Below, in pieces: positions 15,762 to 47,128 of a stretch of DNA of 64,000 bases. The stretch is from NCBI GenBank assembly GCA_977017645.1, contig OZ360222.1:134974001-135038000 (forward strand), written 5' to 3'. This DNA comes from Torpedo marmorata. Lineage: Eukaryota. Below the pieces are notes generated by a model that searched no databases, was not told where the DNA came from, and saw only the letters and a list, made by a program, of their open reading frames with translations. Made by a program: the position numbers and the translations under genes. Each line of letters begins with the position of its first letter. Within the stretch, counting starts at the first letter, position 1.

Positions 15762-18700
15762 TGATGCGCCCATCAATAACTTCAAAAGACTAGAAGTTGT
15801 ACTTGAACTGAAAGGCTTTTATTAGCAATAGAATGGAGCCACGTCCATGCTGGTTATCTGTCCTGGACTGGGGGAGGAGCAGTGGCACAATCGCCTTTAT
15901 TCAGGGGGTCTGTGGGAGGAGCCACAGGAACAGTCAGCAGAGGGCATGTCCAGACATCTTACCCAGCCACAACCTATACACAGTGGTTTACCACATCCAC
16001 CCCTCCTTTTAAAAGAGTCCTGCGGGGTGAAGGGTATAACCATATTTACAGATAAGATACAAATAAGTATATTTACAGGTCGAGTCTATCAGGCGGTCGA
16101 GTCCGCCACTGTGATCGGCGCAGCACTTGTGGTGATCGGGCAGGCGTCAGTGCTAGTGCTGCCTCCTGCCTGATTTGAGGTACCAGCATGTCTGGCGTCG
16201 GCAAGACCTCGTGTGTGTATGCGTGTGTGTATGCATGTGTGTACAGGCTTTCACAAAGTGGAAAAGCCGGGTGATCCCGGGGTGGCAAAGGTCGCAGTGG
16301 AGGGCGTATAACCGGTCGATCTGCGCGCTGGCGCACGTCCCCCGGGATAGGGTATCAGAGGGCTCGTTGAGCTTCCCAGGCCGGTACGGGGGTCTCGTTT
16401 GGTGTCTGTGTCGGGTTTGGAGTATGTGGTGTCTCCTGTGTGTATATAGAGGTCGGTACGGGGCTGACAGTAACCATGGAGTGTTCGGGGGTGGGCCCCA
16501 GTGCTCCTGCGGGCACCAGGTCCCGGATGGAGACTGTGTCCTCCCGCCCATCAGGAAAAACCACGTAGGCGTACTGGGGGTTCGCATGTAGTAGGTGAAC
16601 CCGCTCGACCATCGGGGCGTATTTATTGCTCCTCACATGTTTCCGGAGCAGCACTGGCCGTGAGGACGTCAGTCATGCTGGTAGGGTAGTCCCGGTGGTC
16701 GACTTCCTGGGGAAGGAAAAGAGTCGCTCATGAGGGGTGGCATTGGTGGATGTGCATAGCAGGGAGCGGATGGAGTGGAGTGCCTCGGGAAGGACTTCCT
16801 GCCAACGGGAGACCGGTAGTCCCTTAGACCTGAGGGCTAAGAGTGTTGCCTTCCAGACCGTGGCGTTCTCCCTCTCCACTTGTCCATTCCCCCAGGTGTT
16901 ATAGCTCATGGTCCTGCTAGTCGCGATACCCCTGGCCAGCAAGTATTGGTGCAGCTTGTCGCTCATAAAAGAGGACCCTCAGTCACAATTAATATAGCAG
17001 GGGTATCCGAACAACGTGAAGATTTTACGCAGAGCTTTTATGACCGACGTGGTCGTGGTATTGGGGCAGGGGATAGCGAAAGGGAACCGCGAGTACTCGT
17101 CGATGACGTTAAGAAAGTACACATTGCGGTCGGTGGAGGGGAGGGGGCCCTTAAAGTCGACACTCAGTCGCTCAAAAGGGCGGGTAGCTTTGATCAGTTG
17201 TGCCTTTTTGGGTCGGTAGAAGTGCGGTTTGCACTCCGCGCAGACTTGGCAGTCCCCGGTCATCGTCCTGACCTCCTCAAGGGAGTACGGCAGGTTACGG
17301 GCTTTCACAAAGTGGAAAAGCCGGGTGGCAAAGGTCGCAGTGGAGGGCGTATAACCGGTCGATCTGTGCACTGGCGCACGTCCCCCGGGATAGGGTATCA
17401 GAGGGCTCGTTGAGCTTCCCGGGCTGGTACATGATGTCATAGTTGTAGGTGGAGAGTTCGATTCTTCACCTCAGAATTTTATCAATTTTGATTTTACCCT
17501 GCTGCTGATTGCTGAACATAAATGCGACTGAGCGCTGGTCAGTCAGCAGGGTAACCTTTTGCCAGCGAGATAATGCCTCCAGTGCCTGATAGCTTCCACT
17601 ATGGCCTGGGCCTCTTTCTCCACCGCTGAGTGCCGAATTTCTGGGCCTTGAAGGGAGAAGAATGCCACCGGTCTTCCCGCCTGGTTGAGGGTAGCAGCCA
17701 GAGTGAAGTTGGACGCGTCGCTCTCTACTTGGAAGGGAGTGGACTCGCCCACCGCGTGCATTGCTGCTTTGGCAATGTCCTCTTTGATGAGGCTGAAGGC
17801 CGCGCAGGCCTCAGCTGAGAGGGGAAATGTGGTGGACTTGACTAGGGGACGGACCTTGTTCGCGTAATTAGGGACCCATTGGGCGTAATATGAAAAAATG
17901 CCCAAGCACCCTTTGAGGGCTCTGAGGGTATGAGGAAGCGGTAGTTCCAGCAGGGGGCGCATACGGTCAGGGCCGGGGCCGATGACTCCGTTCTCCACGA
18001 CGCACCCCAGGATAGTGAGTCGAGTGGTTCCGAACATGCACTTATCCTTGTTGTAGGTGAGGTTGAAAGTTTTGGCCGCCTGGAGAAACTTCCGGAGATT
18101 GTTGTCATGATCCTGCCGGCCGTGACCACAGATGGTAATATTGTCCAGGTATGGGAACGTGGCCTTTAATTGGCACTGGTCCACCATCCTGTCCATCTCC
18201 CTCTGGAAGACAGTTACCCCATTTGTGACACCAAAGGGGACGCACAGGAAGTGATAGAGCCTGCCGTCCGCCTCGAATGTGGTGTAAGGGCGGTCCTCTC
18301 GGCGGATGGGGAGCTGATGGTAGGCGGATTTAAGGTCTATAGTCGAGTACAGCTTGTACTGCGCTATCTGGTTCACCATATCCACGATGCGTGGTAGAGG
18401 GTACGCATCGAGCTGCGTGAACCTATTGACGGTCTGGCTATGGTCTACAACCATCCCATGTTTCTCCCCGTTCTTAACGACAACCACCTGGGCCCTCCAG
18501 GGACTTGTGCTTGCCTCAATGATCCCTTCCCTGAGCAGCCGCTGCACCTCCGACTTAATGAAGGCCCTGTCCCCCGCGCTGTATCTCCTGCTTTTGGTTG
18601 CAACAGGTTTACAGTCAGGGTTCAGGTTGGCAAACAGCGTTATGGGATGGATCTTAAGGGTGGAGAGGCCGCATGCGGCTGTGCATGTGATGTGGTGAGA

Positions 18701-19817
18701 TACGTCTCGTATGCCTGAGGAATTGAGGGTTACCGACAGTGATTGGTGGGAGGGGCCCATCATACTCCATCGTCACACTTTGACAGTGGCTCTGGAAGTC
18801 GAGTCCCAGTAGCACAGGGGCACACAGTTGAGGCATGACCAGTAACGTAAAGTCCCAATATTCAGTGTCCTGCACCACTAGCGTTGCTACACACCCCACC
18901 GGATGTCTGTTGTGTGCGATCCGGAAGCCAATGACGACCCTCTGGCTTACCGGCTGTGTCATGAGTCCGCAGCCCTGCACCGTGTCCGGGTGGATGAAGC
19001 TCTCCGTGCTGCCTGTGTCCCTTCACCAGAATGTCCATCATAGACCTCACGAGCAGGTTGGGTGCACTTTGGTCGAGGGTAATGGAGGCCAAAGTTGAGT
19101 CACTGTCTCGATCCGATGTGATGGGGTGACTGGTGTTCCGTTCCCGCAACAGAGAGGCCAGGGATGGCAGCACTCGTGGGAGTGCACTTTGGTCAAGGGT
19201 AACGGAGGCCAAAGTTGAGTCGCTGTCTTGATCCGACGCGATGGAGTGCCTGGTGGTCAGTTCCCGTAACGGAAAAGCCTGGAATGGCGGCACTCGTGGG
19301 TCGTGGGCCGCGCAGTGTCAGCAAGATGGCGATGAACAAGATGGCCACTCCCATGTCTCGCACGTGTTGGCCGCAGGTGTAAGATGGCGGCGGCGGAAAT
19401 GACGCCAAACAAGATAGCCGCCCCCATGTCTCGCACGTGGTAGCAGCGGACGGGCAAGATGGCATCGGCAACAATGGCGACCCCCATGCCTCGCACACGG
19501 CACTGCTCGATCCCTCTCAGGGTTTAGATTTACAGACCTTGGCGAAGTGGCCTTTCTTCCCGCAGCTGGCACAGGTCATTTCTCGGGCCGGGCAGCGTTT
19601 CCGGGGGTGATTCTCGAGTCCGCAGAAGTAGCACTTCGCAGACTCGCGACTGGCGGCAGCTGTGGTTGATTCGCTGGCGTGGTGCAGGGTCTGCGGCATC
19701 CACGGAGCCGTCAGGAGATCATGCGCCTGGATAGCGTCAGAGTTCTGCAGAGCGGCTTCCAGCATATTGGTCAGCTCTATCGCCGAGCGTAAGGTGAGGT
19801 CGGCTTGTTCCAGAAGG
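15762..19817 (-). mobile_element. 5'-truncated Gypsy/Ty3 LTR retrotransposon (gag CCHC, PR, RT, RH, IN, PPT, 3' LTR)
   Basis: CYFCG..H...C and CASCGKKGHFAKVC knuckles; DTGS protease remnant ~19015; IDLKSAYHQ..PFG..YLDN RT; ESDAS RNase H; SVDFKGP..IDEYSRF..GNGQVEREN integrase; PPT AAAAGGAGGGGGTGGA before the LTR at 15995-15762 (TG..CA); frameshifted. Confidence 0.92.
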
Positions 19818-21112: not shown

Positions 21113-22030
21113 TAAAGGACCCCCATCATCCTGATCACAACCAGGTCACAACCTCTTCTCACTACTACCTTTGGGGCAGAAGGTACCGAAGCCTAAAAAC
21201 CAGGACCTCCAGGTTCAAGAATGTTTTTCCCCAATAGCTATCAGGCTCTTGTTACACTAATCATGGACTGCTCTGATACCAAAAAAGGACTGGCTGCACT
21301 ATTAAAAAGTCACTTTTCTTTCTTGCACAAGGATAATTGTGAATATTTATTATCTATCTTTTGTATTTATTATCTATTTTTATTCATATTATTATGCTAT
21401 TGTATATTTTAATTGTGCCTGTTTTGCTGCAGCAAGTAAGAATTTCAATACACATGTACATTGTACAACTTGTAAGAAAATAAACTCATTATCATTAATG
21501 TGGAAGCAATAGTTAACCATTTACATTCACCCCAGTGCAAAGAAGAGTATAGTGAAACACGAAAGTCTGCAAACACTGATTATAGTGAAAACACAGAAAT
21601 GCTGGAGGAACTCAGCAGGTCTCGCAGCGTCCATAGGAGGTAGAGATATAGAACCAACGTTTCAGACCTGAGCCCTACTTCAAGATAAAGAGTGTGCACA
21701 GGTTAAGCTTATAGATTGATCCCAATCAGAACAAGGATTATGTCTGTGTCAGGTCGATTGGCTAGGATCATAGCTTGATACCGTTGTATAGGAAGAGAAC
21801 ATTCTTCATTGGACAAGTCATGTTATTCTTGCTTAGACAGATAAATCTTAATGCACTTTTGCCTCCTGCCCACCAACATCCACCCTGCATTTATTTATTT
21901 ATATATATTGTTACAAAATCAAACCAGCAACGACAGAAGACGCAATGCAAAAGGAGCAAAATTGACATTTATATTTATTAACGACAATTAAACATATAAT
22001 TTCACAACAATCAACCCCACTATAAACACT

Positions 22031-22032
<2 letters not shown>

Positions 22033-22070
<38 letters not shown>
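22033..22070 (+). repeat. (TG)n microsatellite in the 3' LTR
   Basis: About 19 TG units versus about 6 at the equivalent 5' LTR position (26942-26954). Confidence 0.9.
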
Positions 22071-22074
<4 letters not shown>

Positions 22075-25000
22075 AAGCCCAGACCATTACAGTCTGTGCC
22101 CAAACCTCAAAAAACAAAATATAGAAAACCTTCCCCAAAACCCCCAGGTTAGTCATAAAAATAAGTCAGTCCCAAAAATACAGTCCACAAAAATCACTCT
22201 CAATGTTCAGGGTCCAAATTCAGTTCTGTGTGCTCGCACGAAGGACTTCTTAATGAACGTTGGAGAGAGAGACAATGACTGTTTAAGCTTACGAATGCTT
22301 GGCCTGCTTTTCTTCCGATGACTTTCCCTTTTGGTATGTGCACGAGGGACGCTGTTGCAAATCAGTATACCACTGATTGAGGTGCGTACTTGGATCTCAC
22401 GCCTGTTCTCCACGAAAGCTGCTTTATATCAGGATTTTGCTGATACAAGAGGCCATGTGCTATTTTCCCCCAGTCTTTCTTACTGGAATGCACAAGCCTG
22501 GATTTGGTGTTGTTGCTCCAGCCTTTTGGAAGTCCAAACTGAATACTTTTTGCAGAGGTTTGCACCTGCTTTTGCAAAAGTGCAACAAAGTATCTTTCCA
22601 CAGCCTGTCTCTCTATGTGTCTCTCTCTCCTGGGCAAGTTAACTCTTTCAGTACCTGGTCCCAGTGTGTACTCAAAATACTTCATTCTTCCTGCTGACCG
22701 TCCGCAGTCCAAATGGTCAGTCATGGTCCATAACACCTCCCACCCACAAAGAATATTTTGGTCTGCAAGAACAAAATTTTGGAAATTAATTGAGGTGTCA
22801 CAATATAAACAAAACCCACAATGTTCATCCACAAACACAAAAATATAAACTATTTTCATTTATAAAGTTTAGCATCTAGAAAGACAATCAGTGATTACAT
22901 TATCTTTCCCTATTACATGTGTTATTATTAAATCATATTCTTGCAAAATTAGACTCCAATTCAACAACCGTCGATTCTTATTTTTCATTTTACAAAGAAA
23001 AACTAATGGATTATGGTCAGTGTACACTATAAGTGGTTTTTGAACAGTACAGATATACACACCAAAGTGTTGTAGAGCCAACACAAGAGCTAACAACTCT
23101 TTTTCTATGGTGGAATAATTCCTTTGACGATCATTGAACTTCTTCGTTCTTCCTCGGTAACAACACAGCACCCACAGCTTCATCGCTGGCATCCACGGCT
23201 AAATAAAATGGCTTTTCTAAATCAGGTGACTTAAGTACAGGTCGGTGGCATAAAATGGCTTTCAATTTGACAAATGCTTCCTGACAATTTTCTAAGCAAA
23301 TTTGTGAGAGGGAGCGCAAGATCTGCAAAGTTTTTACAGAACTTGCGGTAGTAGCCAATCATTCCCAGGAACCCCCTCAGAATTTTCTTACCAATTGGAA
23401 CAGGGAACTCGGAGATAGTCACAACCTTGGCCTCTACTGGCGCCAACTGCCCCTGTCCTACTATATATCCCAGAGAATTAACAGTCCCAGGACCCTCTCT
23501 GAAACTGGTTTTATCTGTCTCCTCCTGACCCCGGTCGATAACCAGCACCTCTGGTAAATGTTCAGTCCCTTTGTGCGGCACCTGTTCAAAATATGGCTTA
23601 ATCATATTCACATGACAGACGTGTGTCTCGTCTGCGATTAGGTGTTTCTATGACAGAGGTGACCTCATTAATTTTTGACTTAACTCTATAGGGTCCTGAA
23701 AATCTAGCCCTAAGAGGATTTGAATGTGTGGGAAACAGAACTAATACGTTCTCACCAGGTTTAAAAGTTCTCATCTTGGCCTTTCGATCATACCAAACCT
23801 TCATTCTCTGTTGAGTGGCCTTTAAAGTCTCCTTTGCCATCTCACAAGCTTTATGCAACCGATCCTTAAATTTGGAAACATAATCCAACAGATTTAAATG
23901 CACATCACTATTAATCCAATGTTCTTTTAATAACCTTAAAGGACTTCTCACCTCATGTCCGAAAACTAACTCGAATGGACAAAAACCAAGTGATTCTTGG
24001 ACAGACTCCCTTGCTGCAAATAACAACAAATGAACACCCTCATCCCAATCCTTTTCCTTCTCACAACAATAAGTTCTAATCATGTTTTTCAAAGTCGAAT
24101 GGAACCACTCCAAGGCCCCTTGACTTTCTGGATGGTACGCAGAGGATACAATCTGTTTAACTCCCAGTCTATCAACCACTTGTTGGAATACACCTGATAT
24201 GAAATTACTACCCTGATCTGATTGAATTTCCCTTGGAAAACCTACCAAGGTGAAAAACTTTACCATAGCCTTTAAAATTACCTTTGCTTTAATGTTTCTC
24301 AGAGGAATGGCCTCTGGAAATCTGGTGGCTGCACACATAATTGTTCACAAATACTCATTTCCCGCTTTGGTTTTGGGCAATGGGCCAACACAGCCCACAA
24401 TCACTCTCGAGAAACGCTCACTGAAAGCAGGGATAGGTTGCAGGGGTGCAACCGGGGGACCCTGATTAAGTTTACCCACCACCTGACAAGTGTGACAGGC
24501 CCAGCAAAAGCTTACAACCTCCCTTCTCAAACTGGGCCAATAATATTGTTTCATTATCTTCCGTATAGTTTTCTTCACCCCAAGGTGGCCACCTAAGGGT
24601 GTGCTATGAGCCAAAGTTATTATTTCGTCCCTATATACTTTAGGGATCACAACCTGCTGCACTACTGCCCATTCTTCACTGGCAGGAACATCACATGGTC
24701 TCCACTTTCTCATCAACACCCCATCTTTTTCATAATAACCCACTGGCACCTTCTTAATCTCCTCTTCAGATAGAACCTTATCCCTCACCTCAGCAAGATC
24801 AGGATCGTCCTTTTGCCTTGCTATTAGCTGCTGTCGGGATAGTGACAAATCAGTGCCTTTCAGTGTCTTATCAGTGTATGGTGTAACACAGGAGATTGCT
24901 CAACCTTTTCCAGGTGTTTTTGATTATCAATGACTTTTTCTTTCACCAATTTATTTTCCACTGCCTTCTCTACAGTGGCATTTTTCTTAGAAATGGCCCT

Positions 25001-27421
25001 GGTTATGGCACATGCCGGATAAATATAAGAGTCCTTCTCTGACTTATAAATGACTGGCTTAGTGGTCATTCACACTGCAAGAACTACTTTACCCTCAGCC
25101 AAGTCATTGCCTAGCAACAGTGAGACTCCTTCTACGGGCAACTCTGATCTCACTCCTATTATAACAGGTCCTTCCACCAAGTCTGAGTCCAATACTATTT
25201 TGTGCAAAGGAATGGACTCAACATTACCCCCAATTCCTTTAATTAAATTCATTTCACCGGTGTCAGTGGCTTCACAAAATTCCAAGACACTATCTAACAC
25301 AAGTGACTGAGCAGCTACAGTATCTCGCAAGATTTTCACTGGAACTTGCTTTGCTCCTGCCTTAACTGAAACAAAACCATCAGTCACAAAAGGTTTAAAT
25401 ACATCCCTAACTTTGTCAGTAAATTTGTCTCCTTCCTGGGTGTTATGCCTCTTCTCACTCTGAATACAAGCATTAGGTGTTGCATCCTTTTCTCTCTTCT
25501 TTTTCAACACTGGACAGCTTGCTATCATATGACCAGCCTTCCTACAGTAGTGGCAAATGGGACCCGAAGGGTTTTCCCTTTTCCACTTTCCTTCATCCCT
25601 TTCCTTAACAGCACTTCCAAATTTACTTTCCACTTGCTTGGGATTATCCACAGTGACCTTTTGGAAAATTCTGCCTGACGTCCACTTAGGCTTGTGAGTT
25701 AAAGCATATTTATCTGCTAACTTAGCTGAATTTTGCCAAGTTTTCACCTCCTTTTCATCCTCAGGAACACACCTTTTTATCTCCTCAATTATTATCAATT
25801 CTCTCAATTGATTGTAATCATTGTTTACCGCCTTAGATGTGCACCACCGGTCAAAACACACAACCTTTTCATAGGCAAACTCTGTGTAAGATTGGATTGC
25901 TGATCTTTTTAAATTTCTAAACTTCTGTCTATAAGCCTCTGGAACTAACTCATAAACCTGGAGTATAGCCTTCTCTACCGTTTCATAATCAGCAGCTTGC
26001 TCCATGGTAAGAGTAGAAAAAGCTTGCTGAGCTTTTCCTTTTATTACACTTTGTAACATAAGAGACCATTGGTCTTGTGGCCTCTTTAATTTCACAGCCA
26101 CCTTCTCAAAATGCTGAAAGTACTTATCTATTTCTGCCTCCTCAAATGGAGGAACCAACCTAACTTCTCTACTGGCCAAAAACCTCTCAACAGGATGACG
26201 AATTTGATCTTGGTGCTCTTCTTGTCTCCTCTCATTTTCCAACTTAATCTTTTCCAGCTCATATTTACTAATGTTCTCCTCTCTCTCTAAATCTAATCTC
26301 TTTTGTTCCCTGGCTACCTCCAAGTCTAATCATTTTTGTTCTTTGGCTGCCTCCAAGTGTAATCTCTTTTGTTCCAATTCCCTGTCTAATTTCTTTTGTT
26401 CCCTGGCTGCCTCCAATTCCAATTTCTTTAGTTCCAATTGTATGTTTTCAGAAGGTTTACCCTTGGGAAACTCCTCTAACACGCTCTCCTCAAACTTTTT
26501 CCATTTTATATAGTATTTGGCAATTTTTCTCCCAGTCCGCCTTTTTCATTGATGGTTTTACAGAAGCAATGCCAAACTCTGTTGCTATAGCCACTAACTG
26601 TTCCTTTTTAGCCTTTTTTAAAGAATCAGGTTCTGGTGATTCCAAAAAATTTTCTACATCCATTGTTGCTGGTTTTTGTTACACACACACTAGCTTTTAA
26701 TTAGCTTTACTAAAGGAATATCTTAAACTCGACTGGGATTCCTTCAATTAGCAAACTGGAGCTTGATTCAATCCTGGACGAGCCCCCAATTTGTTACAAA
26801 CTTAAACCAGCAACAACAGAAGACGCAATGCAAAAGGGGCAAAATTGAAATTTATATTTATTAACGACAATTAAACATATAATTTCACAACAATCAACCC
26901 CACTATAAACGTCTATAAACACTATTCTTATCTAAAGAGATTGTGTGTGTGTGTATAAAGCCCAGACCATTACAGTCTATGCCCAACCCTCAAGAAAAAA
27001 AATAGAAAACCTTCCCCAAAACCCCCAGGTTAGTCATAAAAATAAGTCAGTCCCAAAAATACAGTCCACAAAAATCACTCTCAATGTTCAGGGTTCAAAG
27101 TCAGCTGCGCTGGCACGAAGGACTTCTTAATGAAGGTTGGAGAGAGAGACAATGACTGTTTAAGCTTACGAATGCTTGGCCTGCTTTTCTTCCGATGACT
27201 TTCCCTTTTGGTAGGAGCACGACGGTTGAGTTCCAAATCAGTATACCACTGATTGAGGCGTGTACTTGGATCTCACAGTCTGACTCGCTGATCTCACGCC
27301 TGTTCTCCATGAAAGTTGCTTTACATCAGGATTTTGCTGATACAAGAGGCCATGTGCTATTTTCCCCCCAGTCTTTCATACTGGAATGCATAAGCCTCGT
27401 TTTGGTGTTGTTGCTCTCACC

Positions 27422-29417: not shown

Positions 29418-30415
29418 TTGACACCTGGCACGGCACCTGGCACGACACCTGGCACGGCACCTGGCACGGCACCTGGCACGGCACCTGGCACGGCACCTGG
29501 CACGGCACCAGGCACGGCACCAGGCACGACACCTGGCACGACACCAGGCACGACACCAGGCACGACACCAGGCACGACACCAGGCACGGCACCAGGCACG
29601 GCACCTGGCACGGCACCTGGCACGGCACCTGGCACGGCACCTGGCACGGCACCTGGCAAGGCACCTGGCAAGGCACCAGGCACGGCACCTGGCACGGCAC
29701 CTGGCACGGCACCTGGCAAGGCACCAGGCACGACACCTGGCACGACACCAGGCACGACACCTGGCACGGCACCTGGCACGGCACCTGGCACGGCACCAGG
29801 CACGGCACCTGGCAAGGCACCAGGCACGGCACCTGGCACGGCACCAGGCACGACACCAGGCACGACACCAGGCACGACACCAGGCACGACACCAGGCACG
29901 ACACCAGGCACGGCACCTGGCACGACACCAGGCACGACACTAACCGTGACACTAGCTGTGACACCAGGCACGACACCTGGCACGACACCAGGCACGGCAC
30001 CTGGCACGGCACCTGGCACGGCACCTGGCACGGCACCTGGCACGACACCTGGCACGACACCTGGCACGACACCTGGCAAGGCACCTGGCACGGCACCTGG
30101 CACGGCACCAGGCACGGCACCTGGCACGACACCAGGCACGACACCTGGCACGGCACCAGGCACGGCACCTGGCACGGCACCAGGCACGACACCAGGCACG
30201 ACACCTGGCACGGCACCTGGCACGGCACCTGGCACGGCACCTGGCACGGCACCTGGCACGGCACCTGGCACGGCACCTGGCACGGCACCTGGCACGGCAC
30301 CTGGCACGGCACCAACCATGACACCAGGCACGACACCAGGCACGACACCAGGCACGACACCAACCATGACACCAACCATGACACTAGCTGTGACACTAGC
30401 TGTGACACCAGGCAT
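29418..30415. repeat. 12-bp minisatellite (RCACCWGGCACG), about 83 units, in APMAP intron 1
   Basis: Uninterrupted 12-bp register with variant units (ACACTAGCTGTG, ACACCAACCATG). Confidence 0.97.
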
Positions 30416-31119: not shown

Positions 31120-31354
31120 CATTAGATTTCAGGTTTATTGTCAGTAAATACATGACATCACAATCACAAGCAACCCTGAGGTTCTTTTTCCTGCGGGCCA
31201 GGCAGAATTACCACATATTGACAGTGCAAAAAAAACCTGAACACAATGTACACGTGTAAATAAATTAAGAAATGTAAACAAACTGACTGTGCAATACAGA
31301 GAGGAAAAAACAATCAATAAAGTGCAAAAGTAAGTCCTTAAATGAGTCCCTGAT
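31120..31354 (-). mobile_element. Rex1/Babar LINE 3' end, host of the ERV and hAT insertions (continues 36672-36834 and 40013-40300)
   Basis: GAGTCCCTGAT|...|CTGATTGAGTTTG reconstitutes the sequence seen at window positions 15-35. Confidence 0.85.
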
Positions 31355-31866
31355 TGTCGGAAATGAAGACTCTCGACAATCGGTTCTCTTTAAAATCAGC
31401 ACAGCACGGTGAAGCTTTATTTATCAAGTCTGCAGAGTTGGACCCAGCCGGCTATCGCCAGGCTGTGTGCTTTTTCACAGCTGCAATAGTCATTTATACA
31501 TTCTTAGTTCATCACACCCCCTTCATTATTTCATCACGCCCCCCTTCGTTATGATTGGATAAGCTTAGATAAGCTTTTTTTTGTACTGCTCTGCTTAACA
31601 ATCTATTATCCTGACATACACTTCTAAAAGGTATTTCCCTCCCTGGCCCCTTTCATGCCTTATCTAGTGGTTAATCTCCTCCCTGGCCCCCTTTCATGCC
31701 TTTTACACAAAACAGATGTTGATAACATGTTGTTTCAAACAGACTAAAGATTCTTTGAATTCTTTAACCATTTGTCTCATTTCACTTTTCCAGTCTTGCC
31801 TATTTTTAATAGATATTTAATCTCATGTTTAACATTGCAACATTCAACAATTCTTACTATCTCACA
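31355..31866 (-). promoter_or_regulatory. ERV 3' LTR
   Basis: Minus-strand order CCAAT (~31558), TATAAA (~31498), AATAAA (~31421); TG...CA ends. Confidence 0.85.
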
Positions 31867-31907
31867 ATCCCCCATTTCTTTCTTTGCAATGTTAAAGGAA
31901 TATCCTA

Positions 31908-32130
31908 TTAATACATGGGATGTACTTCCCAGGGTGGAGTGTGCAGTTCAGCGTTTCTTTGTAGCATAAGTCGCACAGGGTCTGCTGGCCCTCCCGGCCC
32001 CATAGTTTGCTTAACAAGATTAGTTATAAGGGAACGAATACATGGCAGAACACAGGGTATGAAGAGAAGCAGGAGAAGAATAATACCAATAAAAGCCAGG
32101 AGTGAGACACAAATTCTCCAGGGGTTATTC
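31908..32130 (-). pseudogene. ERV env transmembrane anchor and cytoplasmic tail remnant
   Basis: Hydrophobic ICVSLLAFIGIILLLLLFIPCVLPCIRSLI just upstream of PPT/3' LTR; SU and ectodomain missing. Confidence 0.75.
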
Positions 32131-32317
32131 TCACTTCCGACCCCACTCTTTGGATTACCGCAGGCTAACACAACTTGCAGTCACGCAAGAAGAGAGGGGA
32201 AGGGGTGCCTGGTTCTCCCTTTCCTACAGCTCCCTTCCTATGGATAACCGCTAGATCTCTCATCCCTACCAGATTACAGATTACCATAAACATCCAAACA
32301 TTCATTTTTACAATCTT

Positions 32318-33880
32318 TTAACTCTTTTTAAATCGCAGTTTCAATGGATTGTCCGTTGCAGAACAGGTCCAATCAATGTTATCTTCGGTCTGAGGGGGAA
32401 CTGGTCCCTTTAAACGTGAGGCGTGGGTCCAACCCTTTTCTCGTGTTCGTTCTGCCTCTTCAGTCATCAGAAGGACCTGAAAAGGTCCCTCCCAAGCTGG
32501 TCGGAGGCACTCTGTTCGCCACGACTTTATCAATACCCACTCTCCTGGTTGAATGGAGTACAGGGCGAAATCTAAAGGCGGAGTCTGGGCCAAAAGACCC
32601 CGAGTACGTAGATCTGAAAGAGAACGTGAAAGTGCCTGTAAATAGTCCCTAACCAAGACATCCCCATCCTGTATTACTGGGCACTCCGGGGGACGTCCCC
32701 AAAAAGGCACCCCAAACAACATCTCGAATGGTGACACCCCATATCTTTGCGCAGCGCGGTGCGAATACGCATTAGGGCCAAGGGTAAACATTTTGTCCAA
32801 GGCATTTTTGTTTCCTCTATCAGCTTTGTCAATTGAGCCTTCAGGGTTGCATTCATTCGTTCTACTTTTCCCGAACTTTGGGGATGCCAGGGGGTATGTA
32901 ATTTCCAGGTGATCTGTAAAGTCTGGCATACCATTTCATGCACCCGTGAAGCAAAATGAGTGCCCCGATCTGAATCTATCGAGTCCATCACCCCATAACG
33001 TGGTATCAAGTGTTCTAACAGGATCTTACCTACCGTAGAAGCTCGTTCATTGGCCGTCGGGTAAGCCTCTACCCACCGAGTGAAATGATCCACGATAACG
33101 AGTAAATATTTCCACCTCTGCACGCGAGGCAATTCAGTAAAGTCTATCTGAATTCGCTGAAAGGCCTAATTGCAAGAGGGTTTCCTCCTTTCAGCGGAGT
33201 CCGCATTACTTTCTTGTTTATCCGGGCACATATAGCACAGGCCCGTACCTCCTTTTGGGCCAGGGTATACAATCCTTTGCATCCATACTGGCGAAGAAAT
33301 GTATCACATAATGCCTGCGTTCCCCAATGTCCTTGTTGATGTAAATGCCGTACCAACTTACGAGCAGTCTCTTTATTTAATAATGTCTTCCCATCAGGCA
33401 ATTTTCACTCACCACTCTGCAATTTTACCGCTCCTTCACCTCCTCCTGCTCACTTCCCGAGAGAAAGAGGTCATCCACATACTGCAACAGTTGTATCTGA
33501 TCAAGTCGCTCATACTCCTCCAACACCTGTTCCAAAATTTGTCCGAACAAGTTAGGTGATTCTGTGAACCCCTGTGGTAACACCGTCCACCGATATTGCC
33601 GCTTTCGACCCGTATATGGGTTTTCCCATTCAAAGGCAAACATGTCTCGAGAATTCTGGTCCAACGGGCACGACCAGAAGGCATCTTTTAAATCTATTAC
33701 ACTAAACCATCCATGGTCTGGGGGAATCTGGCTCATAATAGTATAGAGATTTGGAACAACCGGGTGTCGGGCAAGGACTACTGCATTCAGACGACGCAAG
33801 TCCTGCACCAACCGGTATGTGCCATCCGGCTTCCTTACGGTTAAAACCGGGGTGTTGTATGAGGACATACATTCTTCCAG
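32318..33880 (-). pseudogene. ERV pol remnants (partial RT fused to frameshifted integrase)
   Basis: RT motifs 33430-33880; integrase H..H/C..C, D,D-E and GPF in three frames; no protease or RNase H seen. Confidence 0.88.
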
Positions 33881-34749
33881 CCTCCTCTTACACCTGTTCC
33901 CTCCGTAAATGGGCAAGGGCCATAATGTCCGGTGCAGTTCTCCCTTACGCACCCATCCTCTTGGCGGCCCCCTCTTTGTGCCTCATCCTTTCTGGATTTC
34001 TCGTTAACCTGTCGGATCGTCTGTACCATAATTCTAGCCGCACGCTTCTGACCTTCCTCTTCCCTCTGCACATACACTTTTTGTGCCTTCTTCAGGAGTT
34101 CACTTAGGGGCATTTCATTCCAGTTCTCTTCCTTTTCCAGCTTCCTCCTAATATCTTGCCACGATTTTGACACAAATTCAATCCGGGTGAATTGTTCACC
34201 CATCGGAGCATTAGGATCAACCCCGGCATACTGCTGGACGTTCTTCCTTATTCTCTCTAGAAAATCGGTCGGGGATTCATCCTTCCCTTGGTAATTCCCA
34301 AATGCCTTGGCAAAATTATGCCCCTTCGGCACCGCTTCCCTTATTCCTTTAATGACTCTCTCTCTATGGAGTCTCATCCTTCTTAATCCTGCATCCGTTC
34401 TCTTATCCCAATTTGGGTCGACTAGGGGATATTTCTGATCGGGATGTTCATTGTTCCCAGGTTCCTCCCGCTCCCAAACTGCCAGGGCAGCCTGTCGGAT
34501 CATTTGCCTCTCTTGAGGCGAGCAGAGGGTCACCATTATGGCCTGTAATTCATCCCAGGTATAAACATTTGGACCCAGAAACTGGTCTAACTGCTCGGCC
34601 AATCTCAAAGGATCTTCAAGCAAACTTTTCATCTCCTTCTTAAACTCCCGCACTTCAGTGCTAGTGAGGGGAACATTAACAAATCCTGTCCCCCCTTCCG
34701 GTCCCCCCATTGGGACCTCCCTCAGGGGATCAATTTCATTCTCTCCCAT
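33841..34749 (-). pseudogene. ERV gag capsid frame
   Basis: PLREVPMGG...FVNVPLTSTEVREFKKEM...QGKDESPTDFLERIRK; runs out of frame into the RT remnant. Confidence 0.85.
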
Positions 34750-34750
34750 T

Positions 34751-35312
34751 TTCTCATCAATAGACCATCTTTCAAATAGTAACCAACTGGCACTTTCTTA
34801 ATGTTCTCATCAGATAGTACTTTTTCTCTAACTTCAGCAAGATCAATTTCTTTATTTTGTTTCTCTATTAACTTTGCTCTGGATAAAGACAAATCCTCTT
34901 TCAGCTGCTGTTCACTGTTACTACTTTCAAGCTTAATACGAGAACTCTGTTGTAACAAAGAAACATTCAAATTGACCAATGTTTTTTCCTGTGTCTCTGA
35001 TTCTGTCTGTGCCTGTGGTTTAATTTTGCATGCTTGTGAGTCTTTTAAATCAGTCTGTCCAGTATTTTCTTCACTGGCAAAGTTTTTAGACAATGCTTTT
35101 AAATCAGTTTGCTCAGCCTTTTCTTTGCTGGCTACAATTCCCCATTCAGCTTCAAACTTAATTGGGTACTTTATTGCAGGGACAACCTTACCTCCTGACA
35201 CAAAAGGTTTACATTCCTTCCTAATTTTACCAACAATCCCCTGTTTTCCATCTCCTTGAATACAAGCATCTCACACTGTTTTCTGTTCTCTATTTCTCTT
35301 CAAGAAAAAACA
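34751..35312 (-). other. Gmr1-like gag/pol fragment captured inside ERV gag
   Basis: DACIQ..KPFV|SGGKVV...LSLSRAKLIEKQ..DLAEVREKVLS..IKKVPVGYYLKDGLLMRKW matches the element at ~24700-25500; flanked by ATTCTCTCCCATT repeats. Confidence 0.88.
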
Positions 35313-36138
35313 ATTCTCTCCCATTACCCCCCTTCCCTCCTCCCGTCCATAGTGCCGCAGTCCCTCTACTGGCTCCCCCTCTTGTTCCGAACTCCCTGGG
35401 GATGCCGTTGGAGCCTGAGGCACATAGGGAGGGGGTAAATTATCTAACAGGTTCCACTTCTTTTCTCCCATCATCCCAAGCTTAAAACTTTTTGCTGTTG
35501 AGCCTACCCCCGGGACCCAACAGAGGGCATAGGCCGATTCCTCCTGATTCACTTTAGGTCTCTTATTCACAAATACATTCAGAGCCTGCCATCTGACCCG
35601 TACTTCGGCCACCAGACCGAATCCCCCCGTAATGAAGGAACCTTGGGAGAAGGATCCTCCCCTGGTTTCCTCATTTGTTTATTCCCCATTTTCTCAGGGT
35701 TGGTGTAGAAACCCCATCACCCCTCTGAACTTGGCTCGACCTCCCCCTTTTCCCGCCGCCCCGGCCAAACCTCAGGGTTCAATTCCCCGGTATCCCGTCT
35801 GGCCGGGTTTCGGCTATTGGGAGTCGTCCTTTCAGGATTCCGGTGTCCGGGCTTCTAGACCCCCCTTTCTTTCAATCTCGTATCTATTTTCTCTCCAGGG
35901 GTTTTACCGGTTATTACTTAACCTTCCCCTTTTCCCGGACCTCTAGCACCGTTCCATAAGTCGTCACTTACCGGTGTCTCCTAGAGCATCCCTCCCCGCT
36001 TCCAACCGTGCTGTTCAGTCCGGATATCACTCGCTCAAGCCGCGTTTGGCGACGAACAAGGATCTCGGGGACCACTGAACTCAGCGGGGTGCACCGTCTC
36101 CGATCCCTTCTTCGTCTCCCCCCACGGCCGGAGTGTGA

Positions 36139-36156
36139 ATCCCGGACGAGCCCCCA
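36139..36156 (-). other. Primer-binding site complementary to tRNA-Pro
   Basis: TGGGGGCTCGTCCGGGAT, the canonical MLV-type Pro PBS. Confidence 0.93.
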
Positions 36157-36159
36157 CGT

Positions 36160-36671
36160 TGTCGGAAATGAAGACTCTCGACAATCGGTTCTCTTTAAAA
36201 TCAGCACAGCACGGTGAAGCTTTATTTATCAAGTCTGCAGAGTTGGACCCAGCCGGCTATCGCCAGGCTGTGTGCTTTTTCACAGCTGCAATAGTCATTT
36301 ATACATTCTTAGTTCATCACACCCCCTTCATTATTTCATCACGCCCCCCTTCGTTATGATTGGATAAGCTTAGATAAGCTTTTTTTTGTACTGCTCTGCT
36401 TAACAATCTATTATCCTGACATACACTTCTAAAAGGTATTTCCCTCCCTGGCCCCTTTCATGCCTTATCTAGTGGTTAATCTCCTCCCTGGCCCCCTTTC
36501 ATGCCTTTTACACAAAACAGATGTTGATAACATGTTGTTTCAAACAGACTAAAGATTCTTTGAATTCTTTAACCATTTGTCTCATTTCACTTTTCCAGTC
36601 TTGCCTATTTTTAATAGATATTTAATCTCATGTTTAACATTGCAACATTCAACAATTCTTACTATCTCACA
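36160..36671 (-). promoter_or_regulatory. ERV 5' LTR
   Basis: Copy of 31355-31866; followed on the minus strand, after 3 nt, by the PBS. Confidence 0.9.
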
Positions 36672-36906
36672 CTGATTGAGTTTGTTGTTGACGAGTCTGA
36701 TGGTGGAGGGGTGCAGCTGTTCCTGAACCTGGTGGTGCGAGTCCTGTGGCACCTATACCTCTTTCCTGATGGCAAGAACAGAGCGTGTGCTGGGTGATGT
36801 AGATCCTTAATGATTGCTGCTGCTCTCCGACGGCCAGTGCCGGATTAACGTAGTAGCAAAAGTAGCATATGCTACAGGCCCCACATTTTCAAGGGCTCCG
36901 CGCTAA

Positions 36907-39315: not shown

Positions 39316-39379
39316 ACTTGCTCTATTACTTTATGTACTATGAATTATGAACGACTGACTGGGTGTTTAACTTAAACAT

Positions 39380-39592
39380 TTTCGTTTTCATCTTTGTGCA
39401 GTGGCTATGAGATACCACACTCCCATAGTCTGTGTTAATAACCCTGGTTAAAGGTGATAATTGACTAAAATCGCTAACCTTAAACAGTTTAAGGTTAGCG
39501 ATTTTAGCCAATTATCACCTTTAATCGGGGTTATTAACACAGACTATGGGAGTGTGGTATCTCGTAGCCGCTGCACCAAGATGAAAATGGAA
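39380..39592. repeat. ~213-bp near-perfect palindrome centred on 39486
   Basis: ...AAAATCGCTAACCTTAAAC-A-GTTTAAGGTTAGCGATTTT...; arms pair out to about 105 bp with scattered mismatches. Confidence 0.92.
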
Positions 39593-40314
39593 ACGGAAAC
39601 GCACCTCAGCTGAACAAAAAATAATCCTCAGCCCCTCAGTCAGCTGGCTGGTTTCGTTTACATGTGGGAAATATGAAAGCTTAAAGGAGTGGTAGCGAAA
39701 ATTATCATATCCTTTCATCAAGGATGTAATCACTGAATATATAGTGATCTGAGAAAGCGAGCAACATTTTGTTAAGAATAATTAAGACTATTTCAAACTT
39801 ACCAAAACGGACATGCAAGGTTAGCGTTAGAAACTCTCTCGAGGGGGGGGGTGGTGGGCGCAGTCACACTTCCCCCTCATTGCTCATGCGCCCGCCAACA
39901 CTTCATGCGCTGTTGTCACACTTCCCCCTCACCGCTCATGCGCCAACCGGCACAATTTAGGGCCCCTTTATAATATATGCTACAGGCCCTGAAATACCTT
40001 AATCCGGCCCTTCCGACGGCAGCGTTCCCTGTAGATGATCTCGATAGTGGGGAGGGTTTTGCCTGTAATGTCCTGGGCTGTGTCCACTACCTTTTGCAGG
40101 GCTTTACGCTCAGGGGTATTGGTGTCCCCATACCAGACTGTGATGCAGCCGATCAGCACACTTTCCACCACACATCTGTCAAAATTTGCCAAGGTTTCCG
40201 ATATCATACCAAACCTCCACAAACTCCTGAGGAAGTAGAGGCACTGATGTGCTTTCTTCATGATGCCATTAGTGTGTTGGGTCCAGGAAATATCCTCCGA
40301 GCTAGGTTCTCCCA

Positions 40315-42200: not shown

Positions 42201-43386
42201 CCAAGTAGTGATAATAAATAAAAGCAGAAATTCTGTAAATCAGCAGATCATGCAGCATCCATGGAAAAGAGAAACAGAATTAACATTCAAGCCAATAATC
42301 TTTCAACAGCAATGGAAATATTTGGATATACATGCAGCAAAAGGAGAAGGAAAAAAGGGAGATCTGTGATGGTGGGCTTTTAAGCTGCCATATCCTGTGT
42401 ATTCAGATAAGCAGATTTGCTCATGCCTGAAAGGCACAAAGTTTCTGGAGAGTGTTCATCATAATTTTCTGTAATAACAGGTTTAGTAATGGGTAATGAG
42501 CCAAATTTAGTATACAGCTTAAGAGTTTGTGAATATATATCTATTAATGGTTATAGTTCGATCAAGTTCAATCCAGTGTTTTCAAGAGAGAAAACATGAA
42601 ACAGCTACTAAGATTGTAGATCTGGGAAGACTGACTTCCGTGAGTACTATTGAGTAAAATCAACGTTGAGTACTGGGAGGTGTTGGGAGAGATTGTAACA
42701 CAGAACCATCTTGCCCCTCTAGGGCGCAAGAGATTTAAAAATAAATCAGCCTTAGGTCACTCAAGAAGTAAGGACAAAAATAAAACTCAAAGAAAACAAA
42801 ACCAATAAATCAGAAAACCTATGCAGATGCTGTATAAATTTTCCAAAGGATATCAAATCAATACAAAAATATTTACAGTCATATTGGGAAAAGGAGGATA
42901 TACTCCTTAAAATGAATCATGGTGATGCAGTAAATGAAAAGTAAGGAAATGGTTAACATGTTGAATAATTACTTTGAATGATGATTTACAGTAAAAAGGA
43001 TTTGCATTAGTGGCATTCTGAGCAAATTAATATTGCCAAAATTGGTTTAAGAAAGATAACAGTGATTATGAAAATAATGCAATTTAAAGGTGATTTGAAT
43101 TCCCAATCTATACCATTCCCTAAATCCTACATCCATCACAGACGGCTGGAAAAGGTAATTATCTATAATAGGACTAGCCAGAGAACAGCTATTAAATCAA
43201 AAAAATTTCTAAACTGTGTCCATATTCTCAACCTATATCTCAATACCGGATTATGAGTTATTTTAACAAATGAAAATGGTAAAAAGGATCCTAAAATTGC
43301 TAACATAGATGTTTTTTTTTTAAAACTTCAATTCCATTTCCATCCAGGATGGGCGATTCTGTAACTTATCAACATGCAATAACAAA

Positions 43387-46300
43387 TTACAAATCCAGAT
43401 GACGAACAGTTTATTCAAGATACTTTTTTACATTTATCTGAGGCTAAGGAAAATATTTTAATTGGTGGAGATTTTAATTGCTGTCTAAATGCGAACATGG
43501 ACAAAACTACTAAAACATTTGTTAGACCTAAAATAGTCAAAAGAATTATTAATTTAATGGATGATTTAAATCTGGTAGATATCTGGAGGAAATTAAATCC
43601 TAGAGAAAAAGATTATTCATTTTATTCTTTTAGACATAACTCATTTTCAAGGATTGATTTGTTTTTGATATCTTCACAAATTCAGGATAGAGTAACTCAA
43701 ATATCTTATAAAGCAAGAATAATTTCAGATCATTCACCTTTATTGATGACATGTATGATTCCAGAGAAAGAAAAAATTGTATATAATTGGAGATTAGATT
43801 CTTCTTTATTAAATAGAAAAGATTTTTGTGAATATATAAGAAAAGAAATTCAGGAATTTTTAAGAATTAATAATAATTCAGTTAATGATAAATTTATAAT
43901 TTGGGAATCTTTAAAAGCATATCTAAGAGGTTTGATAATAAGTTTTTCGGCAAAAATTAGAAAAGATTATTTGAAAGAAGAAGAAAAATTGGAAAGGGAG
44001 ATTGAATTTATGGAGAAAGATTTTCAAAGAAATAAAACAATTTTTAAGAGACAACGTTTAATTAGGAAAAAATTGCATTATAATATATTACAAACTCGAA
44101 AAATAGAAAAATTAATTGGTAGAACAAAACAAAGATATTATGAATTGGGAGAAAGAGCACATAAAGTTCTAGCATGGCAATTAAAAAAAGAACAAGTTTC
44201 TAAAACTATAAATGCTATAAAAAAAAGTACTGGTGAAATAACTTATAAACCTCAGGAAATAAATGATTCTTTCAGAGAATATTATCAGAATTTATATACT
44301 TCGCAGATTGATCAGGATGTTACAAAAATTGATAATTTTTTATCTAAAATTACATTGCCTAAATTAAATAATTTTAATAGAGATATGTTAGATTTACCTA
44401 TTACAATGAGAGAAGTAGTTGAAGCTTTATCGTCATTGAAAAGTGGTAAATCTCCTGATGATGATGGATTTCCGATAGAGTTTTATAAGAAGTTTAAAGA
44501 CTTACTGATACCTATATATATGGAAGTATTGACTCAAATTAAGGAAACTCATTTATTACCGAAAACTTTTTTAAATGCTGTTATTACAGTTATACCAAAG
44601 AAAGATAGAGATGTATTAAAAACTGAGTCATACAGACCTATATCACTGTTGAATGTAGATTATAAATTAATGGCAAAAATTTTGACAAACAGACTAGCTA
44701 AGTTTTTACCATTTTTAATACATTCAGATCAAGCAGGATTTATTAAAAATAGATATTCGAAGGATAATATAGCAAGATTAATAAGTTTAATTAACTTGCA
44801 AAAAAGCAAACAGGATTTGCCGCTGGTGATAACATTAGATGCAGAAAAAGCATTTGATAGATTAGAATGGAATTTTTTATTTAAGGTTTTAGAGAAATAT
44901 GGATTTGGGAATACTTTTATAAATTGGATTAAAACTATATATAAAGAACCTACAGCTAGAGTAATTACAAATGGTCAGATATCATCTAAATTCCCTTTGT
45001 TGAGGTCAACAAGACAAGGATGCCCTTTATCACCTGCTTTATTTGTATTGGCAATAGAACCGTTGGCTGAAGTGATTAGGAAAGATATTAATATAAATGG
45101 GATTAAAGTAGGTGCAGAAGAACATAAAATTAGTTTATTTGCAGATGATGTATTAATATATATGACGAAATCTATTGGATCGCTTCAACAATTAGCTAAG
45201 ATATTGAGGGAGTATGGTGAGATATCTGGTTACAAAATAAATTCAGATAAGAGTGAAATAATGGCTTTATCTCAAGGAGATTATACTAAATGTAAAGAAG
45301 TTACAGGATTTAAATGGGCTAAAGAAGGAATTAAATATCTGGGAGTTAAAGTAGATACAAAATTGGAAAATTTATATAAATTAAATTATGTACCTTTATT
45401 TCAGAAAATAAAGAAAGATTTGGAGAATTGGAAAGATTTACCTATTACCTTAATGGGAAGAGTGAATTGTATTAAAATGAATATTTTTCCAAGAGTTCAA
45501 TATCTTTTTCAATCTATTCCTTTTGGAATTCCTCAAAAATTTTTTAAAGATTTAAAAACTATTATTAGAAAATTTCTATGGAAAGGAAAATTAGCAAGAG
45601 TAAGTATGGATAAATTAACTTGGGAATACGAGATGGGTGGATTACAACTCCCCAATTTTCAATATTATTATAAGGCAGCTCAATTAAAGTTTATTAATGA
45701 ATTTTTTGATTTAACTAAATCTACTGCTTGGATTAATATAGAATTGAATAATATAGGGGAAAGATATAAAGAAGATATTATTTATAAATGGAATTCTAAA
45801 TTATTATTAGTTAAAAAGAAAAAATCACCGATTATTAAACATTTATTGGAAATCTGGACTCAGTTAGACAATGAGATAGGACGAAAAGGGTCATTATCTC
45901 TGAATATGCCATTGTATCAGAATTTATTGTTACCTTTTTCTATTGATAATCAATTTTTAAAACTATGGTTTCAAAAAGGAATTAAGAAGATTAAAGATTG
46001 TTTTGAGGCTGGAAGATTTGTTACATTTTCTAGGTTGAAAGAAAAATTTGGAATAATGGATAATACAATTTTGGCTTACTATCAGGTTAGAGGATTTTTA
46101 GTTGAGAAATTGGGGAATCAATTAACAACTCCAAGACAGGATGGATTAGAATTATTAATTACTAATGGAAATGTTAACAAATTTATATCACAAATGTATA
46201 AATTACTTCAGAGAAAAATGCCTAAGGTAGGATTACATAAATCAAGATTAAGTTGGGAATCAGATTTAAATATTAATATAGATGAAAAACATTGGAAAGA

Positions 46301-47128
46301 ATTATGTAAATTGAGTATGACTAAAATTATTAATGTTAGATATAGATTAGTACAATATAATTTTTTTCATCAATTATATTTAACACCTAAAAAATTAAAG
46401 AAATTTAACCCGGCACTATCAGATATGTGTTTTAGATGTAAGGATGAAATAGGTTCTTTTGTACACTGTACATGGTCATGTTTAAAAATTCAAAATTTTT
46501 GGTTTAAAGTTAAAGATTTTTTGGATAGAATTTTTAATATTACGGTTCCAATGGACCCTATGTTATTTTTATTTGGAGATATTAAAAAATTTAGTATTAG
46601 AAATAGATTGAATATGTATCAAATAGAATTTTTACGAATTGTCTTAGCGGTTTCAAAAAAATGTATCGCTATTACTTGGAAATCAGATTTAGATTTGAAT
46701 TTAGATAGATTACATGCAGAATTACGTTCTTGTATACCATTGGAAAAATTACATATAATTTACGGAATAATTATCATTTCTTTTTGAAAATTTGGAGCCC
46801 ATATATGAGAATTATGGGTATGAATTAATTCTCTAGAAGTTGGTACCGCCGGCAAAAATAACCTCCAATATATAAATAGAATTAGTTTGTAATTTGTTTT
46901 CTCCTCACTTTAACTTTTTAATTCTTTATTATTCAATTCTTTCTTTTTTTTTCTTTATAACTAACATTCTTTTTTTTTTCTCTCTTTTTTTTTTAGAATA
47001 GTGTTGGGGGGGTTGGGGAGGGGAGGGTGGGAGGGGGGGAGGTAATATATCACATGTATTTTGAATAATATACTATTTTTGATTCATGTATTTTGTGATT
47101 TTAAAATTTAAATAAAATTTTAAAAAAA
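43387..47128 (+). mobile_element. 5'-truncated L1-clade LINE with long open ORF2 (43497-46787)
   Basis: GGDFN, SRID, SDH endonuclease; YRPISLLNVDYK, QGCPLSP, FADD RT; C-terminal CFRC..H..C; G-rich 3' UTR, AATAAA and poly(A); TSD AACATGCAATAACAAA at 43371-43386 and 47129-47144; frameshift near C-terminus. Confidence 0.95.

Follow-up and report, generated by a model that had tools for sequence, protein, structure and literature searches.

A Gmr1-like Ty3/Gypsy segment carried by a multi-copy endogenous retrovirus family in the genome of Torpedo marmorata

Introduction

Ty3/Gypsy elements are the presumed ancestors of retroviruses, and deep trees have been cited in favour of chimeric origins. 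A provirus in a 64,000-nucleotide stretch of the Torpedo marmorata genome (hereafter the window; contig OZ360222.1, positions 134,974,001 to 135,038,000, forward strand) raises the question of how a piece of a Ty3/Gypsy element came to lie inside a retroviral gag gene. The original prediction, made from the letters of the window, took the locus for a retrovirus–Gypsy chimera formed prior to its integration there, and our analysis agrees on both points. What we found is a very recent cross-family exchange that can still be traced to the base pair. The same genome contains the two parent families alongside two forms of the hybrid, with about 150 copies that can be dated. The exchange offers a natural data set on the choice of non-homologous switch points by reverse transcriptase (RT), on whether a shared primer favours cross-packaging, and on how a defective hybrid comes to form half of a family. 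The hybrid creates no new protein. The case also carries a caution, namely that repeat libraries can mislabel such a chimeric family.

Results

Anatomy of the provirus and class of the host element

The provirus occupies positions 31355-36671 of the window on the minus strand. The features of the locus are listed below.

36672..36676, no strand: target-site duplication, 5 bp, 5' side of the provirus
36160..36671, minus: 5' LTR, 512 bp, TG...CA ends, identical to the 3' LTR
36139..36156, minus: primer-binding site, 18 nt, same sequence in 8 of 15 donor Gmr1 stretches
35670..35696, minus: gag start region, with short matches to the donor (11 nt and 7 nt)
35326..35689, minus: 5' part of the ERV gag, with matrix and PPPY late domain; the long form has donor sequence instead
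35313..35325, minus: upstream copy of the 13-mer, 10 of its last 11 nt in agreement with the donor; short-form 5' crossover
34751..35312, minus: captured Gmr1-like segment (gag end, protease-deleted spacer, integrase start)
34738..34750, minus: downstream copy of the 13-mer, first 5 nt common to the donor; 3' crossover of both forms
34072..34737, minus: ERV capsid (Gag_p30), 60-bp deletion relative to uninterrupted copies
33428..33840, minus: RT fragment, MLV RT as best match
32321..33165, minus: integrase (rve, MLVIN_C), spread over two frames; deletion of the env block follows downstream
31355..31866, minus: 3' LTR, identical to the 5' LTR, polypurine tract ahead of it
31350..31354, no strand: target-site duplication, 5 bp, 3' side of the provirus
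21908..27225 (ends approximate), minus: neighbouring Gmr1-like element with SCAN-like gag and integrase ahead of RT; distantly related to the donor

The identity of the two LTRs had been claimed before, and it holds over all 512 bp with the true ends at 31355-31866 and 36160-36671. The host element shows the marks of its kind: TG...CA LTRs, a primer site, a polypurine tract and a short target duplication. The primer-binding site at 36139..36156 is presumably of the tRNA-Pro type. In a domain search Gag_p30 was matched at E 3e-30 and MLVIN_C was matched as well, while the RT fragment found its best matches in MLV RT (E 1.7e-38, next group 3e-18). The env gene of the family was recognised in a longer uninterrupted member (TLV_coat, E 1e-10); the env block is missing from the window copy and from 34 other chimeras with both LTRs. 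Judged by its MLV-type capsid, RT and integrase C-terminus, the host element is best classified as a class I (gamma/epsilon-like) endogenous retrovirus (ERV).

The window copy is defective in several places. Both the protease-containing block before the RT fragment and the RNase H-containing block after it are deleted. The gag gene is disrupted by a 60-bp deletion just beyond the insert and a 107-bp matrix deletion at 35633/35636. Excision of 575 bp had been said to restore a continuous gag. Natural uninterrupted copies do exist, but in the window these two deletions break the gene further.

Copies of the 13-mer stand at 34738-34750 and 35313-35325; the match between them ends there on both sides, and neither strand of the window has a third copy. 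Inspection by eye revealed neither a poly(A) tail nor a terminal inverted repeat at the ends of the insert. With no poly(A) tail and no true target duplication, we rejected a target-primed, LINE-type insertion. We also rejected the 13-bp repeat as a target duplication, since bases shared with the donor explain it and the long form described below lacks it.

A young donor lineage without protease

The 562 bp between the repeats read on the same strand as gag, and the neighbouring Gmr1-like element matches them weakly (113 of 150 nt, 75%; 74% of amino acids over 50 codons). The original prediction had looked for the donor in another Gmr1 subfamily. Such a young, near-identical lineage is indeed present in the genome, and the neighbour can be rejected as donor, as it shares 75% identity with the insert against 99% for the young copies.

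A probe for the donor-type continuation gave 265 matches in the genome; they belong to LTR elements. One donor copy (L185) carries an 838-aa frame with Integrase_H2C2 at 224-280, rve at 301-395 and RVT_1 at 719-832, which places the integrase upstream of RT. This order is described as a mark of Gmr1 elements (PMC8220671, PMC2774666). The donor RT is of the Ty3/Gypsy type: the best figures came from the solved structure 4ol8 (E 4e-34) and the named Ty3-G Gag-Pol (E 2e-33), compared with 1e-10 for foamy-type Pol and near 1e-4 for HIV RT. Gmr1 gag is described as linked to SCAN (PMC3424704); a SCAN match was found in the neighbouring element and none in the single donor gag frame scanned. By gene order and RT type, we assign the donor to the Gmr1-like Ty3/Gypsy elements (Metaviridae).

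One donor subfamily (L266-L280) is already without protease. It is multi-copy and defective, about 6 kb long with LTRs of about 1.18 kb, and has long open frames and very young members. The protease is indeed absent from the captured piece, as had been noticed; its loss, however, predates the capture. Over the window segment 34746-35323, which includes the microhomologies, young donor copies match at up to 572 of 578 positions without gaps. Some donor LTR pairs are alike up to 99.9%, 99.5% and 99.4%, which puts the activity of the donor close in time to that of the ERV. Given these young donors, capture from an old decayed copy is unsupported. A 15-bp deletion considered as a chimera-specific mark was likewise discarded: it is absent from 33 donors but present in the young donor lineage.

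Copy number, replication and age of the chimeric lineage

Searching the 6.2-Gb genome at the DNA level yielded 1897 candidates; the insert is present in all 40 that were scored, at 98-100% identity in 36 of them. Exact probes gave 149 matches for the chimeric 3' junction, 58 for the uninterrupted site, 118 for a motif found only in the long form and 314 for the gag start of the family. These probes are 21-25 nt long, miss mutated copies, include tandem copies and count at least one site assembled twice (L146, L147), so that the chimeric share of about half of the family is approximate. An empty-site probe built from the window itself had 0 matches because uninterrupted copies lack the 60-bp deletion of the window. 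The uninterrupted ERV that the original prediction expected is represented by the 58 exact matches.

The Gypsy piece is present in all 30 junction loci listed first and in 8 further ones. At the corresponding site of the uninterrupted copies it was found in 0 of 30 examined, with the expected upstream gag context in 29. Among 19 further family copies, those matching neither junction probe, Gypsy sequence between the LTRs was found in none.

Both LTRs were present in 35 of 41 chimeric stretches (the window copy and 40 others), and 34 lie in flanking DNA of their own. Target duplications in the 35 comprise 28 perfect 5-bp cases, five of 4 bp and one of 5 bp with a mismatch, leaving one without any. 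The distinct flanks and perfect 5-bp duplications mean that the hybrid replicated, as had been anticipated from proviruses sharing the junction at different sites. Since chimera duplications are mostly 5 bp, like those of uninterrupted ERVs (perfect 5-bp duplication in 14 of 19), and donor elements have 4 bp (7 cases, by eye), the ERV integrase is likely the mobiliser.

These data also bear on whether the hybrid is an assembly artefact or the segment a small element, mobile in its own right, with a 13-bp target duplication, either of which we regard as next to impossible. L146 and L147 are one site assembled twice, and counts are somewhat inflated to that extent. Yet the junction recurs on many contigs, the 34 distinct flanks have their own target duplications, and the long-form 5' junction lies in a contig of the public run X2 (possibly the same species or sample), with a 23-nt loose end at 35670. 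The window's own junctions were bridged by none of the contig pieces listed from four public runs. None of the runs listed as containing the sequence is an RNA data set. As for a mobile unit, the segment elsewhere is always internal to Gmr1 elements: Gmr1 sequence continues upstream of the piece in 27 of 27 donor loci and downstream in 25 of 27, which means that the piece does not move by itself. In addition, the repeat is absent from the majority form.

Mean divergence between LTRs was 0.26% in long forms (n=14), 0.20% in short forms (n=19) and 0.42% in uninterrupted copies (n=19), excluding L137 and L147 and with the short sample picked by likeness to the window. By this measure the chimeras inserted more recently than the uninterrupted copies (p=0.011), with no difference between long and short forms (p=0.84).

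In all 34 other chimeras with both LTRs, the same three blocks are missing as in the window. Read in the longer uninterrupted member, the lost blocks hold the gag knuckle and protease, the RT end and RNase H, and most of env. None of 34 chimeric copies can be read in one frame from the gag start to the end of the capsid without meeting a stop. These gene losses and broken gag frames mean that the lineage is unable to supply its own proteins, which were likely supplied in trans by intact family members. Because copies with a shared 145-bp deletion inside the insert (L334, L335, L336 and L130) multiplied too, the insert is most likely a neutral passenger, and the abundance of chimeras is most simply explained by a lucky master locus.

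The probe matches, where they lie about 4.0-4.7 kb apart, suggest tandem arrays of the ERV at G000 C30:161281716-161289722 (3 copies), C58:43091170-43103785 (4), C22:16112323-16121189 (3 copies) and C2:2217545-2222260 (2, chimeric).

Two hybrid forms and their junctions

The chimeras fall into two forms that have one 3' junction in common. The short form, to which the window belongs, keeps the matrix region and has the 13-bp repeat; with 26 loci seen, and making up 4 of the 30 first-listed junction loci, it is the minority. The long form, the majority with 118 probe matches, carries an additional 246 bp of donor sequence that includes the gag zinc knuckle. It lacks the matrix region, and its donor sequence joins the ERV gag seven codons past the gag start. 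The description of an insert between 13-bp direct repeats therefore suits the minority form; the majority form has no repeat, and the repeat itself amounts to microhomology.

Both fusion points show short matches between the natural parents: 5 nucleotides at the 3' junction, 7 at the long 5' junction and 10 of 11 at the short 5' junction. Random junctions shared at least 5 nt in 0.7% of draws and at least 7 nt in 0.07%. An overlap of repeat and donor had been noticed on the 3' side, and it is there; the upstream 13-mer copy, however, matches the donor as well (10 of 11 nt), so both junctions are microhomologies. At the mismatch of the short 5' junction, 6 of 26 short loci have the donor letter. 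From these comparisons the 13-bp repeat reads as two crossovers at one ERV motif.

A further match, observed post hoc, joins the donor 3' breakpoint to the ERV gag start: 11 nt at 35686-35696 are identical. When 3.6 kb of donor is compared with the 37 nt at the long-form 5' crossover, no other match of 11 nt appears, and among 12 donor sites with the 5-nt core one extends to 11 nt. The match lies at most 27 nt from the long-form 5' crossover, which is itself the 7-nt match at 35670-35676. The probe for an intermediate, with the insert running into the gag start, gave one match, which is a point variant of the donor.

One long-form insert and donor L272 differ by 0 substitutions over positions 212-807 of 829. 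Among 57 donors compared, none matched the whole 829-bp piece. Relative to the closest donors, the long-only 246 bp have 8 substitutions and one inserted base, and the shared part has 4 substitutions in 579 that cluster at its 3' end (Fisher p=0.009). Some of the long-only variant letters recur in other donors (L256). As no single donor matches at full length, the template was mosaic or there were two captures. We rejected a source copy with the long-only alleles, since the five long-probe matches lacking the listed junction are all chimeras. Clades with support of 99/93 and 100/99, from trees without the young donors, are not by themselves proof of a single capture.

The two forms are also connected within the family. 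The 60-bp capsid deletion is both present and absent in each form, and in a weakly resolved tree the capsid regions of chimeras interleave with those of uninterrupted copies, a pattern that points to ongoing recombination within the ERV family. A leader haplotype is common to long and short forms. Short inserts are more diverse than long ones (0.62% vs 0.28%). In the matrix region (window 35326-35630, L141-L160), 23 of 24 short forms have three G-to-A changes within 14 bp, compared with 0 of 18 uninterrupted copies; these may possibly stem from one clustered editing or RT event.

Origin of the hybrid

The reading we favour, with somewhat better than even confidence, is that RT switched at short matches onto a co-packaged Gmr1 RNA and back, and that the product was then amplified in trans to about 150 sites. 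Its parts differ in strength. Template switching by RT very probably took place; granted that, the Gmr1 RNA was probably packaged separately, and there is a slight preference for the long form over the short as the first to arise.

In the preferred order of events, RT would leave the ERV RNA at the gag start, at the 11-nt match, and copy about 830 nt of the donor. It would return at the 7-nt match a few bases away, on an undegraded stub of the same RNA. Such stubs are roughly 18 nt long. The matrix region would then be lost between two short repeats, giving the long form. Recombination between the long form and an uninterrupted ERV at the 10-of-11 match would yield the short form with its apparent 13-bp repeat. 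This order accounts for the 11-nt match near the 7-nt crossover, because an RT that left the gag start and returned to the stub would leave this trace. Speaking against it, the predicted intermediate did not turn up among the probe matches, and the LTRs of the two forms show no difference in age. Three further observations do so as well: the excess of long-only changes, the greater diversity of short inserts and the leader haplotype common to both forms. A second capture would explain all three.

These three observations suit the reverse order, in which RT copies 562 nt of donor and returns to the same ERV RNA 13 nt back, and a second switch onto another Gmr1 RNA, with the insert as homology, then makes the long form. 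Here the same ERV motif at both ends of the short form comes naturally, as do the more diverse short inserts. The excess changes of the long-only 246 bp fit too, with a mosaic boundary at 211-301 that contains the short junction at 247, and so do the leader alleles common to both forms and the three matrix changes in 23 of 24 short forms against 0 of 18 uninterrupted copies. Left unexplained is the 11-nt match of the donor 3' breakpoint to the gag start. At informative substitution sites, moreover, long inserts have donor-type letters and short forms derived ones, and a second crossover would be needed within about 50 nt of the insert end. We consider this two-capture scheme rather unlikely, though its mechanism is that of the preferred reading and the two confidences overlap.

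A readthrough or nested capture differs in that no separate Gmr1 RNA is packaged. Either the ERV had inserted into a young Gmr1 copy or ahead of it, or the arrangement was the other way round; one transcript would have covered both, the Gmr1 ends being lost afterwards by switches or deletions at the same microhomologies. Here the claim of RT switching onto a co-packaged RNA stands as the best inference and meets its limit: 12 of 53 proviruses (a raw count) lie in or beside Gmr1-like DNA, many in LTRs, with several more among further copies, which makes the readthrough route feasible. It is described as the classic route of oncogene capture (PMC4997597), and a young genomic copy would resemble the insert as closely as an RNA would. 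On the other hand, the 9.9-kb stretches taken from 35 donor loci, which cover a small part of that family, showed no ERV sequence, and a Gmr1 LTR inside a family copy was found in none of the 19 further copies or the 53 with both LTRs. On balance we doubt that the hybrid arose in this way. Examples of ERVs in or beside Gmr1-like elements are L125, L138, L139, L142, L160, L161, L166, L169, L174, L177 and L178.

Repair at the DNA level is quite improbable in our estimate. Microhomology-mediated synthesis would have mended a broken provirus with sequence from a genomic Gmr1 copy, and the mended provirus would have become the master copy. Microhomologies arise in this way too, and such a route was kept open for recKoRV in the account of that system (PMC6112702). 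However, the template belongs to the youngest donor lineage, has the ERV's own primer site and lies in sense orientation, and repair would more often draw on one of about 300 homologous ERV copies or on a Gmr1 copy of greater age.

Template switching onto a co-packaged RNA, as preferred here, invites a broader and more speculative proposal, which we put forward tentatively. A Gmr1 element and a vertebrate retrovirus with one tRNA primer in common would have been active in the same germ cells, with Gmr1 RNA packaged often enough for two successive captures. Retroviridae and Metaviridae would then still exchange sequence, and the hybrid would have overtaken its parent.

Relation to known systems

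LTR-mediated retroposition as described by Tan et al. 2016 (PMC5131818) resembles our case in several respects: foreign sequence sits in an LTR element with microsimilarity at the fusion points, hallmarks of L1 are absent, and further rounds of retroposition follow as a non-autonomous element. In that description part of the internal frame is replaced, which is true here of the long form, not of the window's short form. The cargo described there is a cellular mRNA with few insertion sites per retrocopy, whereas here it is the retrotransposon of another family, in about half of the family. Of the retrocopy-type features, microsimilarity at both fusion points, retention of both LTRs and further replication occur here. 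The chimera thus works like an LTR-mediated retrocopy; we do not file it as one, because its cargo is retrotransposon sequence.

The recKoRV elements, recombinants of KoRV and PhER (Lober et al. 2018, PMC6112702), are likewise described as products of a recombination that disabled a gamma-type retrovirus, the other partner being a retroelement unlike it. The account reports microhomology at some breakpoints and remobilisation with target duplications, as here, and proposes co-packaging. The partner PhER is itself an endogenous retrovirus, and in that account 17 breakpoints were seen and large parts are swapped; our partner is a Ty3/Gypsy element, and one 3' and two 5' junctions were found. The account of MLV/VL30 packaging and patch repair by Telesnitsky and Wolin 2016 (PMC4997597) describes endogenous retroelement RNAs entering retroviral particles, and unlinked RNAs serving as templates at fortuitous microhomologies, both similar to what we propose. 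As presented there, VL30 resembles a retrovirus and patch inserts were seen in the laboratory or in isolates, whereas here the product was amplified in the germ line. Non-homologous switching is given as at least 1000-fold rarer than homologous switching (PMC3187697).

The mechanism is already known from LTR-mediated retroposition and recKoRV; our searches turned up no other case of Metaviridae cargo in about half of a retroviral family. Our literature search, which saw its sources in part, found no report of a Ty3/Gypsy fragment captured and amplified in a vertebrate ERV; the family may already be annotated in repeat databases.

Other features of the window

Two AT-rich LINE copies, about 78% alike, lie in inverted orientation at 43383-46787 (plus) and 59961-63764 (minus). 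The first has an unbroken 1134-aa endonuclease-RT frame, and the second has one stop. A third Gypsy-type element, GC-rich, at 16153-19317 (minus) shows the usual succession of protease, RT, RNase H and integrase. Minisatellites occur at 29422-30361 (78 copies of a 12-bp unit) and 9033-9410 (14 copies of a 27-bp unit). An inverted repeat at 39379-39593 has arms of 107 bp, a 1-nt spacer and 93% complementarity. At 4234-5127 (plus), amid nearby inverted repeats, a weak GIY-YIG match below the curated cut-off possibly marks Penelope-like remains.
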